DNA from: an uncultured virus (IMG/VR IMGVR_UViG_2897109615_000002)
Taxonomy: Duplodnaviria; Heunggongvirae; Uroviricota; Caudoviricetes
Reading direction: 5' to 3' (one strand)
IMG/VR virus record: IMGVR_UViG_2897109615_000002
Span: 62,001 to 126,000 of that record
DNA: 64,000 nucleotides
Shown: positions 14,707 to 62,754 of the stretch, piece by piece
Numbering within the stretch: position 1 is the stretch's first letter
Layout: the number at the start of each line of letters is the position of its first letter
Notes under the pieces: generated by a model
The model's database searches: none
What the model was told of the DNA's origin: nothing
The model's input: only the letters and a program-made list of their open reading frames with translations
Position numbers and translations under genes: made by a program

Positions 14707-14808
14707 TAGTGACTAAAGGGGAATTAATCCCCTTTAGCGTGTTATCTGCGTATACGTTTGCGTTGTCTCTTGCTACGGAGGCGCTTGCGTGTACGCTTTT
14801 TCTTTTTG
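14707..14808 (+). ncRNA. SR6-like antisense antitoxin RNA
   Basis: Plus-strand promoter TTTACA-16-TATAAT with extended TG (14674-14701); hairpin CTAAAGGGG...CCCCTTTAG; terminator GCGTATACG...CGTGTACGC plus U-tract antisense to the yonT 3' end. Confidence 0.75.
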
Positions 14809-23549: not shown

Positions 23550-25155
23550 TTAAAGAGGACGACAGGAAAGACTTCCTGCACGCTTTGTCACATAGAGCTT
23601 ATGCTCCTAAAAGTGGCAGAGTTAGATGTTATGGAGGAATTTGTCGCCCTCCCCTCTTTTCGCATGTGTTCATCTCCAGTTTAATTAATTAGAGTTCTTT
23701 TATTGATGGCATGGGGGTGTCGTCAATAATAAGCTGTTTACTGATATGTGGGATATCAGTTCTCGGCTAATATTCATTTGTTTGAGGACTTGGAATGCCA
23801 GGGTTTCGGATAAGTGGATATTAGCGGGGTATTGCCCTTACGTGGAAGAAGCTTTTTCTAAACATGTCTATTCTCACTTCATACGAACAAAAGCATTAAA
23901 TTCGACTTTACAGCTACAACTGGTCATTGTAGTTAGTCGGATAATGGTCATTTATGAGGGTTCGAGGTTAACTCGGATGTCTGTATCTAAAAGAGACAGG
24001 TAAATGGCCATTATCGGGCTAAATATGCCGATAAGACTTAACGCATTAATGCAAATTGCGACTGAATCCCATCAGGGTCTTATTATGGGTGGCATATAAC
24101 CTGAATATTAATTGCGGTGCATTGCTTCGGCTTGCACTTAGGGAAGGCAGATGCGTCTCCCTTCCCTTTAAATAATGCCCTTGTAAGCTTTGTTGCTTAT
24201 TAGAGGTAATCAAAAATTTTTCCGGGTTAGCGAGGCTTTGTAATTACATACCCTCGTAAAATAAGTGAAATGGCTTTTGAGCGCTTGATCACCGCTCCCA
24301 TTTCACAGAAAAGGATTATTTTCGGTCTTGCCTTTTCAATTTCACTTAACAACACGTTCACTTTATCTCCTTCAACGTTCTGAATGGAGCCTTACCTTTC
24401 CCATGCACATACCTCCTTACACGGGGCAGAGAAAACTGTGCAAAATAAATGGCGAGCGTTTGAGACGCTTTGTTTCTCAATAAGGCGTGTAACCCGACAA
24501 GAGCATTAAAAATGCCATTGAGAAGGCTTATTAGGGTCTTTCCTTCTCAAATTATTTTTTCCTTGGCTCTCAGACTCTGCTGAGCAGTTGGCAAGCAACA
24601 TAAAAACTTGATATATAAGATGTTGGCAATAGGAACTTTAAACACATTCAGAAAGTGTGTATTATTTGTTGTCATAGCTCATCTGCCAGGTGTAGAAGGA
24701 GCCAGCTGGATTCCGCACAGCGATAACCAGCCTTTTATGCTCATGTACCATGAAGTACAAGGAGTTTCTGAAGACGTTATTTGGCGTCTTTTGTTATTTT
24801 CGCCTTACTTATAGTTTGTCGACTACAAAGGTTTCAGTCGCTGAACCCGTAATCAGCGTATTCCCTGTCGATCTGAAGGCTTGCGTCCCTACGTGAGCTA
24901 CTGACGTAGGTGAAACGGGGTTAGAATGTAATCAGAACAAGGCCATCTAAATCGTTAGAAGGTCTTTTTGTGCTTGCGTTTTACTTTACCGATCATCCGG
25001 AATGTGCTTACGAGCCTTCCGGTACGCAAGTAATCAATAATCTCCTTCGGGCGTTTCCCCAACGCCTATCCGACTTATCCTTTCTCCTTTATATCCCCTT
25101 TTCGGACGTTACCGATGCTTCGGATCATCGAGCTTCCGAAGGAGCTTATTGAACG
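23550..25155 (+). ncRNA. Candidate large structured RNA, or cluster of structured RNAs
   Basis: No credible ORF; about 20 stems, many needing G-U pairs on the plus strand, e.g. 23766-23825 (27 of 28 paired, 8 G-U). Confidence 0.7.
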
Positions 25156-45859: not shown

Positions 45860-48800
45860 TTGAGTCAAGATTTAAAGATCATACTCACACCCAAAGCTGA
45901 TACTTCTTCAAAAACTGTCGAACAGTTAAATCAGCAAATTAAATCTTTAGAGAAAAAGCTAAATTCCCTTAATTTAAAGACCAATATTGATGCCTCTGCT
46001 TTAAAGACTCTCAACGAATTCTCCTCTGCAGTTGACACTTATCAAAAACATCTCAAATCCTTCAATCAAACAGTTAAAGAAACTACAACGATTACCAGAA
46101 ATGCTGATGGCACTGTTGAAAAGCTTACGCAGCAGTATAAGAAAAATGGCGAAATCATTCAGCGTGAAACAAAGACCATAGACAATCGTAATCAATCATT
46201 ACGTGAACAAACACAAGAAGTTAACAGGCTTGCTCAAGCCACTGAAAAACTTGGTCAGGTACAGAAAAGAACAGAACAAAAGAATTCTCAAGGACAAACA
46301 ACGAGAGTTACTCAAAAGAACCGCAATGGCTTCGATGATATAACTTATACGACTGACCCAAAAACAAACGCTACTTCATCAAAAGTAACAACGAATTATG
46401 ATCAACAACGAAACGCTATTGAACAATTAAAGCTGGATTTAGAAAAACTTAGACAACAAGGAATTGTAACCGATACTACCCTCTCTTCTCTTGGCCGGAA
46501 ATTAAACACTGCTCAAACAGCACAACAAATTGAAGCATTACAAAACAGAATTAAGATGCTCGATGATAAGTCTGCTGCTGTGGCGAAAAATAATGAACTC
46601 AGAAAAACTATTGAGTTGTATCAACGCCAAGCGCAGGTAAACGTACAAAACCTTAATACACGTTACGGCGATACAATGGGTGCCGGCAATAGACAAGCTA
46701 CTCAAGATTATTTAAATGCAGTAAATAGTCTTAATGTAAGTGCCGGCGGTAGTAATATCAGATCTCAAATGCAAAGCTTGAACATGCAATTCAGGGAATT
46801 AGCTTCAAATGCTCAAACAGCGTCTAGTCAAGCCTCGTCTTTTGGTGCGGAGCTAACTCAAGCTTTCAAAAGCATGTCTACATATTTAATCTCCGGTTCT
46901 TTGTTCTATGGTGCTATATCTGGGCTCAAGGAAATGGTCTCCCAGGCTGTTGAAATTGATACTCTAATGACAAACATCAGACGTGTAATGAATGAGCCTG
47001 ATTATAAGTACAATGAGCTACTCGAGGAATCAATAAACCTAGGAGACACCCTTTCAAACAAGATCACTGACATACTTCAAATGACTGGCGATTTCGGGCG
47101 TATGGGGTTCGATGAAAGTGAACTGTCCACTCTAACAAAAACCGCTCAGGTACTTCAAAACGTCTCTGACTTGACTCCTGACGACACAGTTAACACTTTA
47201 ACTGCCGCAATGTTAAACTTCAATATTGCTGCGAATGATTCTATCTCAATTGCAGATAAGCTTAATGAAGTCGATAACAACTATGCTGTAACTACTCTTG
47301 ACCTAGCGAATTCGATTCGAAAAGCAGGAAGCACCGCTTCCACTTTTGGCGTTGAATTAAACGATCTGATTGGTTATACTACAGCAATTGCAAGTACCAC
47401 CCGTGAATCAGGAAACATTGTTGGTAACTCACTTAAAACCATTTTTGCACGTATTGGGAATAATGACAGCTCAATTAAAGCCTTAGAACAGATTGGTATT
47501 TCTGTGAAAACTGCCAGTGGTGAGGCGAAATCTGCTACTGATTTAATTAACGAGTTAGCAGACAAATGGAATACCCTCAGCGATGCTCAAAAACAAAATA
47601 CCTCAATAGGTGTAGCGGGCATTTATCAGCTTTCTAGATTTAATGCCTTGATGAATAATTTCTCCATATCACAAAATGCAGCGACCACTGCAGCTAATTC
47701 CGCAGGAAGCGCTTGGAGTGAACAGCAGAAATACGCTGACAGTTTACAGGCAAGATTAAACAGGCTGTCAAACGCATTTACAGAAATGTCGGTTGCCTCA
47801 AGTGAAGCCTTCATCTCTAATAGCATTGTTGTTTTTGCAGATGCACTTAAAGGATTAATGCAAACAAGTGCTCAAATTACTAAAACAGTCGGGCTCCTCC
47901 CTCAAGTTTTTGGTTCTGCGACAACTGCAATCCTGCTTTTCAACACCTCTCTTCGTACAGCTACCATCTCAACTGGAATGTCTGCAATATCAACCCTTAA
48001 AAATCTTGTCTTAAACTTTAATGCTGTTGGGCTTGGTGCAACAACAGCTTCAGCTAAAACTGCAGTTTGGACACGAGTGGTTAATGCTTCAAGCGTTGCG
48101 ATGAGCAATCTAAAGAAAGTCGCAGTCTCGACAAGCGCTTTTTTAGCAGGCAGTTTTCTTCCAATGGCAGCTATGGTTGGACTTGGCGTCGTTATTGAGA
48201 AACTCATTTCCTCTTATTCTGAATTAAAACAAGCTAGGGAAGACTTTGAACAAGCTAAAACTACTAGCATTGAAGCAATTACAACCAATAAAGATGAAAC
48301 TGATAAACTGATTAGCCAATACAAAGAACTGCAAAAGGCTAAAGATGGCGGGGCTTTATCAGCCAATCAGGAGCAAGAATACCTACAAGTAACACAACAA
48401 TTAGCACAAACATTCCCGAATTTGATCGCTGGTTATGATTCTCAAGGGCAAGCAATCTTAAAGAAAAACCAAGCACTTAAGGATGCTATAAAGTACACTG
48501 AAGACCTTAGTAATTTAAACAAAAAAGACATTCAAACAGGTGCCAATAGTAACTTTAAGCAAAGCTTAAAAGACATTGATAAACTCAATGATAAGATTAA
48601 ACAGTATAAGCAGGTTGCTGATTATTATAAAAACGGCAAGAGCTGGGATATTTTCTCTTCTGAAAATGACAAAAAAAATCAAGGTATTAAAGCTGAACAA
48701 GATGCACTACGTACTGAACAAGAGCTATCCAGCTCACAGGCTAAAATTAGAGAGCAAGTGCAACAGACAATTGATGCCTTTAACTCAATAAAGATAAATC

Positions 48801-50260
48801 CGAATCTTTCAAGGGAAATATCTAACGCATTCGATAAAATCGACTTCAGCAAAATGAATGCAGATGAACTTGAGTCATTTTCAATAAATGTTTCGAAATA
48901 CATGGATAATATCCAAAAAGCTCTGCAATCGGGCAATAAAAATAATTTTGATTCCGCCTCTAAAAGCTTAGAACAGCTCGTTAATCAATATATGAGTGGC
49001 AAAGATAAAGCTAATGGTTTGGCTTTATCTTATGATGACCTTAAAACTGCCATTGACTCTACAAATGATTCTGCACAAACTGCAAAAGTAACATGGGATG
49101 AAAATGGTGAAGGTGTAGATGCATTAGGTGAGCAAGTCGGGAATTTATCTGACAAGCTCAAAGAGGCTAAAGGTGATTTTGAAGCAATTAAAGGAATCAT
49201 CGATGATTTAGTTGAATCGAAACAAAATGATGCTGCTATATCTGCCATTCAAAATGAAGCTTATGACACTATGTCTGACAGCATCTCCCCTTTAAATAGC
49301 CTCCTTGAGAAAATGTCTGAAGGTAAAAGTATATCTGCAACAGAAGCCATGAAGCTTATTCAGAAAGAACATGATCTTGCTGATGCAATTTCAGTTGAAA
49401 ATGGTGTTGTAAAAATCAACAGAAATGCAGTTGTTAAGCTTCGGGACACAAAACTCAAAGCTTACAATGATATGCAACAATCTGTAAGACAAGATCTAAT
49501 TAATCAGGCTAATGCATTAAACAAAAAGATTAATATGTATAAGTCTGAAGTCAAGGCTATCAAGACTGTTCAAGACGCTTATAAAATGAAGTCTGAGCTT
49601 GAAGATAACAAGAAAAAGATATACGACGAACTAAAAAAAGGGAACAGTGGTGCGCTGCAGTTCCTACCGAAAACACAGGATGATTTAAATCAGGTCACTG
49701 ATATCACTGATCAGCTTAAAGAGCTTGATAAACTAGCCGATTTGGCTTCAACTTCCCTATCTGAAACAGGAACATCTCTTGATGACCTGTCTTCTTCAAG
49801 TGATAAAGCCTCTGAGGAAATGAAAACATCTATGTATGTGGCTGATAAATACAAGGAAGCTCTGGAGAAAGTCAACGCTGAAGTTGAAAAGTACAATAAG
49901 CAGGTAAACGACTATCCAAAGTATTCTCAAAGTTATCGAAATGCCCTGCAGAAAGAAATTAAAGCTCTCCAACAAAAGAAAAAGCTTATGCAGGAGCAAG
50001 CCAAACTCCTCAAGGATCAAATTAAGTCAGGGAACATTACACAATACGGTATTGTAACCTCTTCCCTCTCCGCTGGTTCATCTTCTGGTAGTTCTTATAC
50101 TTCCGGTGGCGGGTCTTACTCCGGTAAATACTCCAGTTACATTAATTCTGCGGCAAGTAAATACGGTGTTGATCCAGCTCTAATTGCAGCTGTGATTCAG
50201 CAAGAATCTGGTTTCAATGCAAGAGCTCGTTCTGGAGCTGGAGCTGCTGGTTTGATGCAG
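45860..50260 (+). CDS. yomI: Tape measure / lytic transglycosylase CwlP, exon 1
   Basis: TTG start MSQDLKIILTPKADTSS; tape-measure domain; SLT motif QQESGFN; ends GLMQ at the intron boundary. Confidence 0.92.
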
Positions 50261-52745
50261 GTGCGACCGTAAGGTCATGTAAGAAATTTTCTTTAGCAAG
50301 AAACAGGTACGATCACGTCTCCTGTCATCACTCAACTTATCCGGGAAGGAAACTGAACGGGGAGTGTAGCATGTTGAGAAAGCCATAAGTTATCGAAATA
50401 CCACGGTACGACTGAATGGCAAGATGAAAAGTTGTAAACAAGGATGAAAGCTAAACTGCTTAAACGATAGTCCGAGGTGATTAAAGGGCCATCTATAACG
50501 GAAGGTATTTATAAACGTTATACAACCAATACCCTATTGATTAATTGCATGTCAATCGGGAGTGATCTAAAGGTTGACCGTCTTCAATAAGAAGAAAAGG
50601 ACGAACGTCGCATCCGAAATTACAACGCGCTTGTTCTTACATGTGCTAAACGGTGATTACCTAAGTTGGAATGCTTAATAGCTATGGCATTTAGTGCCTG
50701 AATATCCAATAAGGTAACGGAGTTTCCGTAGTAGTCCGAGGTAGGGAAAGCCTACCACATGGCGAAGGGAAACAGCTTATCATGTCTTACACAAAAATGG
50801 AAAGGAGCGTGAGGCTCTATGAGAAGTCCACAAGTCGTGTTAGACAGTCTAGCGAGACAAACAACTCGTTCGGATTATAAATTTAAACGTCTATATAGAA
50901 ATTTGTACAACACGGAATTTTATCTCTTAGCCTATTCAAACATCTATTCTAAAGAAGGAAATATGACAGAAGGTGCCGACGGTCAAACTATCGACGGTAT
51001 GAGCCTAGAACGCATTGAGAATTTGATTAACAGTCTTAAAGATCACAGCTATCAACCAAAACCATCGAAACGAACATATATCCCAAAGAAGAACGGGAAA
51101 AAACGTCCATTGGGTATACCATCATTCGAAGATAAGTTGCTACAGGAAGTAGTGAGAATGCTTCTTTCAAGCATCTATGACAAAACGTTTTCCACAGTGT
51201 CCCACGGGTTTCGGCCTAATCGAAGTTGTCATACTGCTCTAACCCAGGCAAAAAATAAATTCACTGGTACTAAGTGGTTCATAGAAGGCGATATAAAAGG
51301 TTTCTTTGACAACATAGATCATCATATCCTTATAAACATTCTCAGAAGGAAAATTGATGACGAAAACTTTATTAGTCTCATATGGAAATTCCTCAGAGCA
51401 GGCTTTCTTGAAGATTGGGTGTATCGTAAAACTTACAGTGGAACACCTCAAGGTGGGATCATAAGCCCCATACTGTCGAATATCTACTTGAATGAACTGG
51501 ATCAGTTCATCGAGAAATATAAAACATCTTTCGACAAAGGTAATTCTCGCAAGAGATTGACAGAGTACCGCACAAAAGAAACGCGGCTCTTCCGAGCGAG
51601 AAATAAATACAAAAACAATTGGGACGACATGAACGAACAAGAAAAAGAAGATGCAATAGTTCACCTTAAACAACTTAAAAATGAAATGATGGAATTACCA
51701 TATAAAGACCCTATGGACGATGGTTTTAAAAGGTTGCAATACGTGCGATACGCTGATGATTTCATTATCGGTGTTATTGGTAGCAAAGAGGACTGTGAAA
51801 GAATTAAAAAAGACATCACAGAATATCTTATCCAAGAGCTCAAAGTCGAGCTATCTCAAGAGAAAACACTAATCACCCACTCATCCAACAGAGCAAGATT
51901 CTTGGGATATGACATAAAGGTCAGTCATGATCCTTTAACTTCAAAACGCACCAGTAGTGGACACAAGCAACGAACCAGATCAATGGTTTGTGAACTTCTT
52001 GTCCCTCATGAAGCGTGGAGAAACAAGCTTATTGAATACAAAGCGATAAGAATAGATTCGAAGAATCAGAAATGGAAATCAATGCACAGATCCCATCTTC
52101 TTCAAAATGATGACTTAGAGATCCTTGCGATATACAATGCTGAAATCAGAGGGTTATACAACTATTATCGCTTAGCAAATAATGCATACAAGCTTCATCG
52201 CTTTAGTTACATTATGGAATACAGCATGTACAAAACATTTGCTTGTAAGTACAAATCAAGCGTTAGCAAAATCATCAGTAAGTATAGTGTGAATGGCAAA
52301 TTTGCCGTAAGGTATCAGACGAAGAATGGGCAAAGAATTTCCTACTTTTACAATGATGGGTTTAGAAAGCAAACCGAAATTTCCAAAGATATCTCTATAG
52401 ACGCCGTCCCGATGGGACGAGGAATTATTTATAATAGAACGAGTTTGATTGATAGACTTTTAGCGGAAAAATGCGAATGGTGCAATAGTACAAACGTGCC
52501 ACTTGAAATTCATCACGTTAGGAAGCTAAAAGACCTAAAAGGCAAGAAAAGATGGGAAAAGCGCATGGTTGAAAGAAAACGTAAAACCATGGCGCTTTGT
52601 AAAGACTGCCATCTCAAATTGCACAACGGAAAGCTAGATTGATAAGTGGAGAGCCGTATACATCGAGAGGTGTACGTACGGTTCGGAGAGGAGTTCTTGG
52701 AAACCTAGCATAGAGATATGCCAAGGCGCCGGGTTCTTACTCTAC
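50261..52745 (+). mobile_element. Group II intron (IIA, Ll.LtrB-like), 2485 nt
   Basis: 5' GTGCG at 50261; domain V GAGCCGTATACATC-GAGA-GGTGTACGTACGGTTC (52651-52684); 3' end CTCTAC at 52745; removal restores GLMQ-LMP in frame. Confidence 0.96.
50819..52642 (+). CDS. ltrA: Intron-encoded reverse transcriptase/maturase/HNH endonuclease
   Basis: KRPLGIP, GTPQGG, RYADD, X domain, C-terminal CEWC...HH...CKDCH. Confidence 0.96.
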   Translation: MRSPQVVLDSLARQTTRSDYKFKRLYRNLYNTEFYLLAYSNIYSKEGNMTEGADGQTIDGMSLERIENLINSLKDHSYQPKPSKRTYIPKKNGKKRPLGIPSFEDKLLQEVVRMLLSSIYDKTFSTVSHGFRPNRSCHTALTQAKNKFTGTKWFIEGDIKGFFDNIDHHILINILRRKIDDENFISLIWKFLRAGFLEDWVYRKTYSGTPQGGIISPILSNIYLNELDQFIEKYKTSFDKGNSRKRLTEYRTKETRLFRARNKYKNNWDDMNEQEKEDAIVHLKQLKNEMMELPYKDPMDDGFKRLQYVRYADDFIIGVIGSKEDCERIKKDITEYLIQELKVELSQEKTLITHSSNRARFLGYDIKVSHDPLTSKRTSSGHKQRTRSMVCELLVPHEAWRNKLIEYKAIRIDSKNQKWKSMHRSHLLQNDDLEILAIYNAEIRGLYNYYRLANNAYKLHRFSYIMEYSMYKTFACKYKSSVSKIISKYSVNGKFAVRYQTKNGQRISYFYNDGFRKQTEISKDISIDAVPMGRGIIYNRTSLIDRLLAEKCEWCNSTNVPLEIHHVRKLKDLKGKKRWEKRMVERKRKTMALCKDCHLKLHNGKLD

Positions 52746-55235
52746 TTGATGCCATCCACAGCTAAGAGCTTGGGTGTAAGCAATGTTTATGATCCTTATC
52801 AGAGCATTATGGGTGGTACGAAATATCTAGCCCAACAACTAAGCAAATTTGGTGGCAATGTTGAGAAAGCACTTGCTGCTTATAACGCAGGGCCTGGTAA
52901 TGTAATTAAATATGGCGGCGTCCCTCCCTTCAAAGAAACTCAGAATTATGTTCAGAAGATCATGTCAAACTACACCAAGTCAATGACTTCCGCTAATTCC
53001 TCCATTGCAAGCTACTACACGAAGAACAGCGCTTTTAGAATAAGTTCTAAGTATGGTGCACAAGATGGCGCTTACCGATCAACTCCACATAAAGGTGTCG
53101 ACTTCGCAGCAAAAGCTGGAACCGCAATCAAATCGGTTCAGAGTGGGAAAGTTCAAATTGCTGGCTATAGTAAAACTGCCGGTAACTGGGTTGTCATTCA
53201 GCAGGATGATGGAAAAGTTGCTAAGTATATGCATATGCTTGATACCCCTTCTGTTAAAGCCGGTCAAACTGTTAAAGCTGGTCAGACCATCGGTAAAGTT
53301 GGCAGTACGGGTAATTCAACAGGAAATCACCTTCATCTTCAAATTGAGGAAAACGGAAAGACCATTGACCCTGAGAAGTATTTAAAAGGTGTCGGTACAT
53401 CTATTTCAGATGCATCTCAAGCTGAAGCAGAACGACAGCAAGCAATAGCACAAGCCAAATCCGATCTTCTCTCCCTCCAAGGTGACATTGACTCAGTAAA
53501 CGATCAGATACAAGAGCTCAGATATGAGATCGTTCAATCGAAGCTCGATGAGTATGACAAACGTATTGGTGATTTTGATGTAAGAATCGCTAAAGACAAA
53601 GCCCTCGCTAGTCATTATCTGAGCGATAGTAAAGAGTTCCGTAAGTATACAAACGATCAGAAAAAAGCTTTAACTGAACAGCAAAAGATTCAGAGTCAGA
53701 AGGTTTCTTTTATTGAAAAAGAAATCAAAACAAACAAAACTTTGAATGCTGCTCAAAGAGCACAGCTTGCTGAGGAATTAAAACAAGCTAAGATTGATCT
53801 CATCAATTTCCAAGAAGAAGTAAGAGAACTTCAGGGACAGCTCATCCAATCCAAAGTTGATGAAACGCTTAACGGCATAGAGAAATCAACCAAGAAAACT
53901 GAATCCAAGCTTAAAGATGTTGGAAACAAAATATCCATGACCGAGGAAGATAAAGACAAGGTTAAATATTATAGCCAACAGATTAAGCTTATTCAGCAAC
54001 AGCAGACTGAAGCGAAGAAGTATATCAAACAGTTGGAAGCACAAAAGAAAGCTGCCAAAGGGTTCCCGGATATTCAGAAACAAATTACTGAAGAAATCGA
54101 GAACTGGAAAGACAAGCAGAAGGATTACAATCTGGAGCTTTACAACACAAAGAAATCAATCAAAGATGTGTACAAATCCCTTGCTGATGAAGTTGTCTCC
54201 ATCTACAAAGAGATGTACGAAAAGATGCGTGATATTGAATTAAAAGCGCATCAAAAAGCTACGCAAGACTTGATTGATGAGATTGATAAAACTGATGATG
54301 AAGCTAAATACCAAAAAGAGCTCAAAGAAAAGAATCAGGCTATTCAGGAAACCAAAGATAAACTAAACAAACTATCCCTTGATGACTCTGATGAAGCAAA
54401 ATCACAGGTTAAAGACTTGGAAAAGCAACTTCAAGAACAGCAAGAAGCATTAGATGAGTTTCTTAAAGATCGTGAAAACAGTAAACGAAAAGAATCGTTA
54501 CAAGATCAGCTTCAAAAAGATGAAGATTCAATTAACAAGAAATATGATGATCTCGTCAATGATGAGCGTGGGTTTAAGGAACTTGAGAAAAAGCTAATGG
54601 ATGGGAAGATTACTGATATTGCTAAGCAACTGAATGAATTCTCTAAGTTCATTAACAGCAATATGGAGTCCATTGGGAAAAGCATCTCTAATAACCTTAT
54701 CGATAAGCTTAAAGAAGCCTCTAATGCCCTTAATACTGTGACCAAAGGCAATAAAACTGGAAAAAAGGTATCTTCTTTTGCATCGGGTGGATACACAGGA
54801 ACAGGACTCGGCGCAGGTAAGCTCGCCTTCCTTCATGATAAAGAGCTTATCCTAAATAAAACAGATACTGAAAATATGCTTGAAACTGTAAAGCAAGTTC
54901 GCAATCTGTCTAATAACGATTTGAATAATGAAACACCTAAATGGGGGCAAGGTGGAAAATTAGCAGCTTTGATTAACAAAGGGATTACCTCTATTCCATC
55001 AATAATTCCGAATATTAATCAATCCAGTCTTTCTAATAGTTTGATACCGAGTATTCAAAGCCTCTCTTCCCCACCAGATGCTACTAAGTCAGTAAACGGC
55101 ACTGTAAACAACAATAATTTTAAAGCTACATTTAACATTAATGAATCAGAAAATCCTCAGAAAACAGCTGATTTTGTATTCAATAAATTTGCAAATGGTC
55201 TTAAAAACAAGGGCATAAATTTCAACAACTCATGA
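52746..55235 (+). CDS. yomI: Tape measure / CwlP, exon 2 (SLT C-half, M23 peptidase, coiled coil)
   Basis: LMPST...ALAAYNAGPG; HKGVD, HM and HLH M23 motifs; FASGG. Confidence 0.92.
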   Translation: MMPSTAKSLGVSNVYDPYQSIMGGTKYLAQQLSKFGGNVEKALAAYNAGPGNVIKYGGVPPFKETQNYVQKIMSNYTKSMTSANSSIASYYTKNSAFRISSKYGAQDGAYRSTPHKGVDFAAKAGTAIKSVQSGKVQIAGYSKTAGNWVVIQQDDGKVAKYMHMLDTPSVKAGQTVKAGQTIGKVGSTGNSTGNHLHLQIEENGKTIDPEKYLKGVGTSISDASQAEAERQQAIAQAKSDLLSLQGDIDSVNDQIQELRYEIVQSKLDEYDKRIGDFDVRIAKDKALASHYLSDSKEFRKYTNDQKKALTEQQKIQSQKVSFIEKEIKTNKTLNAAQRAQLAEELKQAKIDLINFQEEVRELQGQLIQSKVDETLNGIEKSTKKTESKLKDVGNKISMTEEDKDKVKYYSQQIKLIQQQQTEAKKYIKQLEAQKKAAKGFPDIQKQITEEIENWKDKQKDYNLELYNTKKSIKDVYKSLADEVVSIYKEMYEKMRDIELKAHQKATQDLIDEIDKTDDEAKYQKELKEKNQAIQETKDKLNKLSLDDSDEAKSQVKDLEKQLQEQQEALDEFLKDRENSKRKESLQDQLQKDEDSINKKYDDLVNDERGFKELEKKLMDGKITDIAKQLNEFSKFINSNMESIGKSISNNLIDKLKEASNALNTVTKGNKTGKKVSSFASGGYTGTGLGAGKLAFLHDKELILNKTDTENMLETVKQVRNLSNNDLNNETPKWGQGGKLAALINKGITSIPSIIPNINQSSLSNSLIPSIQSLSSPPDATKSVNGTVNNNNFKATFNINESENPQKTADFVFNKFANGLKNKGINFNNS

Positions 55236-60201: not shown

Positions 60202-62754
60202 TTGAACGACAATTTAATTCCCGTAAACACAATGGGTTATATGGACGAAGAAACAGAGCAATGGATACCCATTGATGCTATAGGGTTAAAATCAAATAAT
60301 ATCAGATATACTGCAGACGATATTCAAGAGGCTTTTGATAAAGCTTCTAAGGATATTAAAAACGTAATAAGCACAGTCGATTCTGGTTTAACAGATATCA
60401 CAAACACTATTGGAGACATTTCAAAAATCCCTGCCTCCGGCGCAACTGTTGTTGATAAAGTTTTAAATGAATTTATCAGACGAAGTGTTAATGTTCAGGA
60501 TTTCGGAGCTAAGGGTGACGGGGTTACTGATGACACTAAAGCTTTTGAAGCTGCTTTTGCAAGTGGGAAACGAGAGGTTTTTGTTCCTGCAGGCATTTAC
60601 ATGGTTCAAGGATTGCACATCCCCTCTTATGTCAGACTTTACGGTGTTGGTTCAGGGTCTATTATCAAACTTCATCCTTCAGCTACTGGAACATCTTGCG
60701 TTCTAACAAACAGTGACTACACTAACGGAAACGAATATATCTTAATTGAAGACTTAGACCTTGATTGGAATTTAGACAAAAAGGATAACATCATTACAAA
60801 CGGCACAAATGCAAACTGTGTGGGCATTGTTAACTCTAAATTTGTTCGGGTTAGAAACGTCAATGCTCGTAATCCAGGTGTACACGGTTTTGATGTAAGC
60901 TCCCCTGTTTGGAATTCTTCCACTGATACTAATGGAGCTGAAAAATATCAACCCAACGGTAGCAAATATGTGTGGATTGAAAATTGTACTGCAACTAATT
61001 ATGGTGACGATGGCTTCACAACTCACTATTCTGATTACATCTTCTTCACTAACTGTTACGCCTATGACGCAAATGGATCTGCGCACAGCAAAGGAGCCTC
61101 GAATTCAAACGGTTTTGAAATTGATGATGGCTCTAAAAACGTGTGGCTTGTGAACTGTTACAGCCGAAAAAACTGTAGAGGTTTTGAAGTTAAGGCTCAC
61201 AACAGAGCACCAGCAGCAAGAAACGTAAACTTAATTAACTGCTATTCCGAAAATGATATCCGTGCATTTGACTTTAGACACATCGGCTTCCACCTAGCTT
61301 CTGAAAAACCCTCCCCAAATGCATTTGACATTAATGTCGTTAACTGCACTGCACAACATCCTATTTTCAGTGACCTTTATCAAGGTTTAAATCCTCGCGC
61401 ACTTGTTATTTCCGCTTATAGAAATGTCAACGTATCAAACTTCAACGCAATTGGTGACCCGACATATGATTACAAAAATACTACAGTAATCTCTACTCAA
61501 TATAAGAGCAGAAATATCAACCTAAGCAACATCACTGTTTCGGGGTTTACAACAGCAAGTAACGATATCTATGTAATCGGTGGAGCTCAAAAATCAGACA
61601 ATGTAAACATCTCAAATGTAACCATTGACCAATCTGCTTTAGTAGGTATTGCTGTTGGAAGTAAAGTTGATTCAGTTAATATCAGTAACGTTAACATGAC
61701 GGGAACAAACAAAGCAGGTTCAATAGGTGTTTATTGCACTAACTCACAGGCCAATATTAGCGCTGCGATGTGTAAACAATACGCTACTCCCAGTAAAATT
61801 GCCGGAAAAACCTACACGTTTATCCCGAATAATTTCAAAGGCGGTCTACGCGGGGCTACGACTTCTGGCTATGCTAAAACAAATACTAGTGCAGTATTAG
61901 CTTCATCGGGTGAGCCTCAAGCACTTGGGGATGCTACTTTAGTTGGTGCCACTACTGGAGGATGCGTTGCAAAGGGAACAAGAACCAACGTTTTGGTTCA
62001 TCAGGCGGAAGCTCTGTAGACGGATCTCGTAGCGGTGTTTACAACTCCAATGATTCTCACATCGAGGGGCAAAATGTATCACGTGAAATCCACGCTTCTG
62101 GCGGTGTAAAGCTTGGTGAAAATGATCGCTATATGGTGGTTGGCGGATATGGCGCTACTCCCTCTAGAGCAAATATTAAATGGATGCTAAACTCCATGAA
62201 TGGAGATATAACATCTGCAGGGAAGATGAATGGTGGAGCAACCTTTAGTGATTACGCTGAGTATTTTGAAAGCCTTGACGGAAAAGCAATTCCGACAGGG
62301 ACAATTGTCACTCTTGAAGGAGCTAAAATTCGCCCAGCGAGAAAAGGTGAAGATGTACACGGAGTAATTCCGAAACTGCAGGAACTATATTAGGCGGAGC
62401 TGATATTCACTGGCAAGGCAGGTATTTAAAGAACGAGTTCGGTGGATACATATATGAAGATGTGGTCAACCAGAAACTGGTGATGTTAAGAAACTGCCTA
62501 AAGTAAACCCTGAGTGGATTGAAAAAATAGATTACGTCCCTCGTGAAGAACGTCCTGAATGGAATATAGTAGGATTGCTTGGACAGGTTTATGTGAAAGT
62601 GGACAGTACTGTTTCTGTGGGAGATCGAATTGAAGGTAATTATGGAATCGGCACAAAAACAGAAGACAGGTTTTACTCTTGGAAGGCTATGGAGATTGTA
62701 ACTCCATATTCAGACAAGCTCGGTTATGGCATTGCCATCTGCTTAATTAAGTAA
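60202..62754 (+). CDS. Tail spike/pre-neck appendage (beta-helix plus peptidase G2 chaperone), split by three 1-nt frameshifts
   Basis: NVQDFGAKGDGVTDDT; SDYAEYFE; VPREERPEWNIVGLLGQ; frames join at about 61995, 62369 and 62470. Confidence 0.85.

Follow-up and report, generated by a model that had tools for sequence, protein, structure and literature searches.

Before 2025, group II introns were regarded as absent from phages (PMC2504315, PMC3429520). Tourasse & Kolsto 2008 reports that tape-measure genes of Bacillus cereus-group prophages contain group I introns and that none of the identifiable prophages has a group II intron (PMC2504315); Leclercq & Cordaux 2012 likewise knows of no active phage with one (PMC3429520). 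Merk, Jones & Eddy 2025 has since curated 20 phage group II introns, three of them class IIA (one in the uvrX gene of the Spbetavirus BUCT083), and obtained group II matches in 9,229 IMG/VR contigs, thousands of which are unexamined (PMC12350094). In conjugative elements, a review states that the group II intron in orf14 of Tn5397, a conjugative transposon of Clostridioides difficile, splices in vivo (PMC4430133). Here we analyse an intron in a 64,000-nucleotide stretch (the window; positions 62,001 to 126,000 of IMG/VR record IMGVR_UViG_2897109615_000002, an uncultured virus of the Caudoviricetes), which comes from a 127-kb provirus with a completeness rating of 99%. From comparison of sequences we conclude that it is very probably an intact, recently mobile group IIA intron of the type of Ll.LtrB from Lactococcus lactis, which retrohomed into the motif G-L-M-Q|L-M-P (the bar marks the insertion point) of an SPbeta-like yomI/cwlP homologue, the tape-measure gene. 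A group IIA intron had been proposed here by an earlier reading made from the letters alone (the sequence-only reading), and its claims are taken up where the evidence bears on them.

A group IIA intron in the SLT domain of a yomI-like gene

Intron boundaries were mapped on 86 loci fetched via the intron protein, 51 of which gave two clear ends with flanks. Homology to the window begins at 50260-50263 and stops at 52745-52747 in many relatives, and several short contigs consist of the intron alone, beginning or ending at the mapped boundaries. The upstream exon ends in ...GGT TTG ATG CAG at 50260 and the intron opens with GTGCG at 50261; it closes with ...CTCTAC at 52745 (the final AC being 52744-52745), and the downstream exon reads TTG ATG CCA from 52746. 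The sequence-only reading had located the intron correctly, and its junction CAG|TTG is borne out both by the homology limits of relatives and by uninterrupted Spbetavirus alleles; the extent that it gave (50221-52770) took in 40 nt and 25 nt of exon at the two ends. The intron lies in sense orientation within the tape-measure gene. Insertion in phase 0, as first proposed, agrees with the frame arithmetic (50261-45860 is divisible by 3) and with the contiguous YomI alignment described below. Without splicing, the reading frame meets a stop after three intron codons (50270-50272). Coordinates of all features are collected in Table 1.

Ligation of the exons gives a frame of 2296 aa from TTG 45860, which stands behind GAAAGGA and is homologous to the annotated yomI start. 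The same length had been predicted and is right given this start; the open reading frame (ORF) listing holds a longer alternative frame from GTG 45800. Exon 1 (1467 aa) aligns with YomI 1-1465 at 63% identity and exon 2 (829 aa) with YomI 1466-2284 at 77% identity, colinear from end to end, and in YomI of SPBc2 residues 1465|1466 are contiguous within ...GAMGLMQ|LMPATAK. Pfam matches PF10145 in exon 1 (1.4e-32) and PF01551 in exon 2 (3.5e-30), and the SLT profile is split by the intron, with positions 2-42 in exon 1 and 44-116 in exon 2. The insertion thus separates Q from L in the GLMQ|LMP motif of the SLT domain; profile and YomI alignment agree on the site that had been named from the sequence.

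The intron and the surrounding 4 kb were compared with phages by megablast. The exons are too diverged for this method, and intron-less alleles were therefore sought by tblastn with the last 200 codons of exon 1 and the first 200 codons of exon 2. The closest relatives of the gene found in this way are Spbetavirus tape-measure genes only. In all 24 Spbetavirus records listed, the two matches adjoin base to base and no intron intervenes (e.g., NC_001884 32901|32900), so that the intron-less alleles which the sequence-only reading had suggested looking for were found in every record compared. The uninterrupted site of SPBc2 (L087), ATGCAA|CTGATGCC, has C at +1 and differs in the region of intron-binding site 2 (IBS2), and may be a poorer target than the allele in the window. 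The provirus has no SLT domain beyond the interrupted one and therefore carries no second target on board; the target-like pattern ATGCARYTNATGCC has no other match within the window.

The intron-encoded protein (IEP) matches RVT_1 (PF00078), Intron_maturas2 (PF01348) and an AI2M-like HNH domain (PF21368). It is colinear with LtrA (5g2x_C) over residues 5-600 (E = 2.4e-162), whereas proteins of IIB and IIC introns match it in the reverse transcriptase (RT) domain only (E about 1e-38 to 1e-43). Against TIGR04416 it scores 292.7 bits, slightly below the cut-off of 300. The open frame, the three domains and the colinearity with LtrA confirm that RT (YADD) and HNH are intact.

Table 1. Positions in the window of the tape-measure exons, the intron and its elements.
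Feature	Position	Strand	Remarks
Exon 1 of yomI-like tape-measure gene	45860..50260	+	1467 codons; PhageMin_Tail, first part of SLT; ends ...ESGFNARARSGAGAAGLMQ
Group IIA (ML-lineage) intron	50261..52745	+	2485 nt, GUGCG...CUAC
11-nt unpaired loop GAGUGUAGCAU with AGC (epsilon'/lambda region)	50362..50372	+	invariant in 20/20 aligned introns; alignment columns 117-127
Candidate exon-binding site 2 (EBS2) GGGCCA in 14-nt hairpin loop	50486..50491	+	pairs with exon UGGUUU 50248-50253
CAACC, 5' strand of conserved intron helix	50523..50527	+	with GGUUG 50572-50576; alignment columns 281-285/366-370; overlaps AACCA 50524-50528
Delta A 50544 and exon-binding site 1 (EBS1) UUGCAU 50545-50550	50544..50550	+	pair with T 52746 and AUGCAG 50255-50260
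IEP, 607 aa	50819..52642	+	RT (YADD), maturase X, HNH; ribosome-binding site (RBS) AAAGGAG upstream
Domain V, 34 nt	52651..52684	+	catalytic triad AGC 52652-52654; RF00029 alignment
Domain VI	52687..52743	+	bulged A 52739; RF00029 alignment AGAG-G-AG ... CU-UA-CUCU
Exon 2	52746..55235	+	829 codons + stop; starts LMPSTAKSLG; rest of SLT, Peptidase_M23 (~53085-53372)

At the RNA level, the last 97 nt of the intron (52649-52745) match the full Rfam model RF00029 at 61.9 bits (gathering score 40), and the alignment predicts the bulged branch-point A 7 nt before the 3' splice site. The consensus fold calculated with RNAalifold on 20 related introns contains 130 pairs, 79 of them with at least one both-sided (compensatory) change, and shows conserved structure in domains I to III. 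An 11-nt loop with AGC in the lambda/epsilon' region is the class IIA criterion of Merk et al. 2025 (PMC12350094); the presence of this loop together with the LtrA-type IEP upholds the class assigned from the sequence.

EBS1 and the candidate delta occupy the 11-nt loop of hairpin 50532-50560, the stem of which has compensatory changes, and EBS1 forms six of six pairs with the exon end ATGCAG. Pairing between EBS1 and intron-binding site 1 (IBS1) was evaluated on 41 distinct combinations of intron and site (of 52 rows), with the exons shuffled 2000 times. Mean pairing was 4.73/6 against 2.91 +/- 0.21 in shuffled sets, a value reached by 0/2000 shuffles. Of the three exon contacts drawn in the sequence-only reading, the pairing of a stem-loop TTGCAT with ATGCAG is sustained by the complete pairing and by covariation over the 41 combinations, and delta A 50544 is indeed complementary to the first T of exon 2. 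The third, between AACCA and exon TGGTT, stands as complementarity but is poorly supported as a functional pairing: AACCA lies in a conserved helix (50523-50527/50572-50576) with both-sided changes in 5/5 pairs and shows no covariation with the exons (2.6 vs 2.43 +/- 0.13; reached by 142/1000 shuffles). On these grounds AACCA is probably not EBS2, and its match to TGGTT probably a coincidence. The loop with GGGCCA, about 55 nt upstream of EBS1, pairs with UGGUUU by three Watson-Crick and three G-U pairs, and across introns this loop tracks each intron's own exon at -15..-7 (4.4 vs 3.82 +/- 0.15; reached by 0/1000 shuffles). With low confidence, we take GGGCCA to be the likelier EBS2.

Probable recent mobility and relatives at the SLT motif

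The intron occupies the same position in a sibling provirus (L003), whose D5/D6 match appears as one row of Table S2 in Merk et al., with neither host gene nor analysis (PMC12350094). The two introns differ at 5/2485 positions (99.8% identical), whereas the flanking exons differ at 92/2000 (38 upstream and 54 downstream, 1000 nt each; 94-96% identical), so that the intron is about 20-fold less diverged (Fisher p = 6e-27). Exon differences set in at 7 nt on the upstream side of the intron and at 24 nt on the downstream side, so near that homologous recombination would need crossovers within those few bases. This pattern is the one expected from precise RNA-mediated insertion into two diverged alleles and argues for recent retrohoming.

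Another copy, 98.9% identical, interrupts the DDE domain (profile positions 331|333) of a Tn3-family transposase in antisense orientation, on a 2968-nt scaffold labelled Thermoflavimicrobium daqui (L007). The IEP of this copy has a 15-nt (5-aa) in-frame deletion, and its insertion site is target-like (CTGGCTCTTTGCAA|TTGATGC). Such a near-identical Bacillus-type intron in a Thermoactinomycetaceae assembly may reflect either recent transfer or contamination. The cluster of IEPs at 90% identity comprises 10 members, spread over about 34 contigs that include several chromosomes of 4.0-4.3 Mb; one member comes from Bacillus sp. AG1. Roughly 35 IEP clusters fall at 70-77% identity. The exact 31-nt pattern of the intron 5' end occurs in IMG/VR only in the sibling provirus and had no match in the metagenome contigs searched.

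More distant relatives were drawn from the best 80 of 178 IEP matches. The nearest other IEPs are 73-77% identical (measured in eight genome loci) and the next best at most 61%. In these eight genome loci and two plasmids, the intron is inserted in 10/10 cases after the Q of ...E-T-x-F-S...G-A-x-G-H-(M/L/T)-Q|F-M-(P/V).... In the host genes of this sister clade an SLT_2-type domain precedes NlpC/P60 or M23, or the product stands alone at about 230 aa. Some of these genes belong to type IV secretion system (T4SS) clusters, where their neighbours encode a CD3337/EF1877 mobilome protein, PrgI, an ATP-binding protein and a 'type IV secretion system protein'; others have chromosomal housekeeping genes around them. 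Positional homology with the tape-measure site is based on one BLASTP match, the motif itself and the downstream SLT_2 matches. In the BLASTP comparison, the exon 1 ends align with E-S/E-T in register and reach exactly GLMQ/GHMQ (E = 5e-4, 30% identity, 86 columns); the comparison of exon 2 with the sister hosts was not significant (E = 6.6), and the N-terminal half of each sister-clade host had no Pfam match. In DNA sequence, the sister targets have the common core ATGCA(A/G)|TTNATGCC and match the window at 7/8 first downstream bases and 17-20/30 upstream bases.

A quick tree of the IEPs (52 rows) unites the 10 SLT-inserted rows and L007 in one clade (SH-aLRT 100), with the phage copies sister to the rest. 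Looking for related introns in other SLT genes, as the sequence-only reading had advised, thus yielded these 10 relatives (IEP 73-77% identical where measured), and the comparison supports its suggestion of a possible spread among SLT-domain genes: each of the 10 closest other relatives examined occupies the homologous motif of an SLT-type hydrolase gene, and together they fall in one clade with the phage copies. Tentatively, and with less than even confidence, we propose that these introns represent an undescribed IIA lineage specialised on G-x-M-Q|(L/F)-M-P of SLT-type hydrolases. The lineage would move between plasmid T4SS/conjugation hydrolases, stand-alone chromosomal SLT genes and a phage tape measure, and would now be retrohoming between diverged SPbeta-like phages. 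It would then be a selfish marker in phage-phage competition, like the homing-endonuclease introns of T-even phages, acting via an RNA route without a co-conversion tract.

Several observations on these relatives are recorded here in their own right. Between the helix strand CAGCC/CAGCG and the hairpin of EBS1, sister-clade introns (L008, L009, L011-L015, L063) have an additional hairpin of some 35 nt (alignment columns 287-321), which is missing from the phage intron. One member, L063, comes from a metagenome-assembled genome (MAG) contig labelled Planctomycetaceae; its 30-nt and 20-nt intron flanks equal those of the Metabacillus plasmid pB218 (L090), and the contig is probably misbinned Bacillaceae plasmid DNA. 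The intron in MT836071, an integrative and conjugative element according to Merk et al., is related, and its 5' flank is not the SLT motif. A large sister lineage (L030, L040-L044, L047-L054, L057, L058, L061, L062, L068-L071; IEP 55-58% identical) is always inserted at SIVHPRE(V/I)|(F/Y)(K/R)EA and is another site-faithful lineage. We take this motif to be of the RadC/JAB type from its appearance. For L033 and L045 the boundary script returned intron spans of 3765 and 4797 nt, which suggests nested insertions or a wrong 5' end.

Splicing, proposed mechanism and rival explanations

The arrangement of signals suggests the following course of events. Late pre-mRNA of the tape-measure gene would be translated only as far as the stop three codons into the intron. 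The IEP would be made from its own RBS in domain IV, bind the intron and promote lariat splicing at branch A 52739, and splicing would join CAG|TTG to give the 2296-aa tape measure. Without it, the protein would lose M23, half of the SLT domain and the C-terminal third, and tails should fail, so that virion assembly would depend on splicing. The lariat ribonucleoprotein (RNP) would recognise ATGCAG|T through EBS1 and delta, a weaker IBS2 and protein contacts, the downstream TTNATGCC being common to relatives. It would reverse-splice into intron-less SLT sites while HNH nicks the other strand, priming cDNA, and the intron would in this way pass from one co-resident SPbeta-like phage to another and, in rare cases, reach look-alike sites.

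Four RNA-labelled runs were examined, two metatranscriptomes from one study and two isolate runs. In each metatranscriptome run one contig (depth 22-24) joins 50260|52746, skipping 2485 nt with GT..AC ends, and the same runs contain intron pieces identical to the window at lower depth.

Several points weigh against the intron being an active, SLT-directed IIA element. Relative to the window, the joining contigs have 5-7% of exon positions changed, none of them within 22 nt of the junction, and may represent spliced RNA of a third allele or an intron-less allele, which are indistinguishable here. The two isolate runs assembled only the unspliced, L003-type form; their contigs amount to about 4.2 Mb and look genome-wide, the libraries may be largely DNA, and the runs are therefore uninformative on expression. 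The EBS2-IBS2 pairing is weak, 3/6 pairs being G-U, and the exon CGGAUU of L003 pairs poorly with both EBS2 candidates. Delta-delta' pairing (31/41 vs 29.1 in shuffles) is uninformative, nearly all introns having A and T at these positions. The Rfam D1-D4 models (clan CL00102) have no match in the intron, even at E <= 1; the published IIA intron of BUCT083 likewise lacks a D1-D4 match (Table S1, PMC12350094), and the models thus appear not to cover the lineage. As to targets, the clade of SLT-inserted introns comes from a quick IEP tree, and the SPBc2 site, with its C at +1 and differing IBS2, indicates that not all SPbeta alleles are good targets.

The likeliest rival view is that the intron is dead or deficient in splicing, so that its insertion disabled the tape-measure gene and left the provirus defective. 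The evidence of splicing is indirect, the isolate runs and the weak EBS2-IBS2 pairing fit such an insertion, and group II insertions in Clostridium prophages have been read as inactivating in one report (PMC11318856). We nevertheless consider it improbable, given an IEP frame that is open and colinear with LtrA including YADD and HNH, conserved domains V and VI together with the 130 consensus pairs, and a sense orientation in phase 0. The intron also occupies two diverged, otherwise intact alleles, the provirus is rated nearly complete, and some 34 contigs carry the IEP cluster.

Vertical descent would also place the intron at a common site in all members, and a single ancient insertion inherited with the host genes, in place of target-specific homing, could explain the common SLT position on that count. 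It is very unlikely: IEPs at 73-77% identity contrast with host SLT regions at about 30% over 86 columns, the domain partners vary (tape measure with M23, NlpC/P60, M23, none), the 24 other Spbetavirus alleles are all without the intron, and between the two proviruses the intron is about 20-fold less diverged than the exons. Least credible of all is the production of two unspliced polypeptides, a truncated tape measure and an SLT-C/M23 protein from TTG 52746, for which the ORF listing does offer a TTG start exactly at that position; no Shine-Dalgarno sequence precedes it, the upstream stretch being domain VI (...GGGUUCUUACUCUAC), the break would fall inside the SLT fold, after profile position 42 and before 44, and 24/24 relatives encode a single chain. 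The retrohomed, splicing-competent IIA intron accordingly remains our preferred explanation.

Elsewhere in the window, Rfam matches an SR6 antitoxin RNA at 14710-14807 (+; 88.8 bits), which fits an SPbeta-like prophage; SR6 is presumably antisense to the yonT-type type I toxin, which is known from SPbeta. A DUF3800-VIII RNA motif lies at 24859-24924 (+; 44.7 bits, gathering score 40.2).

Significance and comparison with known systems

We regard the intron in the window as real, tidy and not unprecedented. Its added value is modest and consists in the SLT-motif lineage and the evidence of recent phage-phage transfer; knowledge of how group II introns work is unchanged. A full-text literature search found no description of the present intron or of an SLT-targeting lineage. 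The host is an essential virion gene in a model family of temperate phages, and its expression should hinge on the intron-encoded maturase. Sequence comparison provides evidence of a recent and precise transfer between diverged phage alleles, and a target motif common to cell-wall hydrolases of plasmids and chromosomes points to a route of intron exchange between plasmids and phages. Bacillus subtilis and SPbeta-like phages would offer a tractable system in which phage-phage retrohoming can be measured.

Among phage introns, the nearest counterpart is the uvrX intron of BUCT083 (ON107264), which resembles the present one in residing in an SPbeta-type phage, in class IIA, in an IEP with RT, and in its GTGCG start and AC end (PMC12350094). 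Its DNA is about 71% identical over 71% of the intron and is the only phage match by megablast. It differs in interrupting a Y-family polymerase gene and in falling on a different branch of the quick IEP tree, and the tape-measure gene of BUCT083 itself is intron-less. In view of this published IIA intron (PMC12350094), the statement of the sequence-only reading that the introns known in SPbeta relatives are mainly of group I is outdated.

The B. cereus-group introns are alike in being of a self-splicing type and in lying in frame in the tape-measure gene of a Bacillus prophage with an early in-frame stop; unlike the intron in the window they are group I and move by DNA-based homing. The Tn5397 intron is likewise of group II and lies in a gene of the conjugation module of a Firmicute mobile element. 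No C. difficile loci occur among the best 80 of 178 IEP relatives. We assume that orf14 of the Tn916 family encodes a cell-wall hydrolase, and if so, the Tn5397 intron resembles the sister clade described here.

Staddon et al. reportedly described introns that target relaxase genes in 2004. Like the relaxase-targeting ML introns, the lineage described here keeps one conserved codon position across diverged host genes; unlike them, its target is the SLT-domain motif G-x-M-Q|(L/F)-M-P. Ll.LtrB and its protein LtrA (PDB 5g2x) are also among the closest known systems: both introns are of class IIA/ML, encode an RT-X-En protein colinear over its full length, place delta (in the window the candidate A 50544) beside EBS1 and are inserted in a conserved motif of a mobile element's gene. 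This likeness was assessed at the protein level, and the hosts differ, a relaxase gene for Ll.LtrB and a phage tape measure/SLT hydrolase here.

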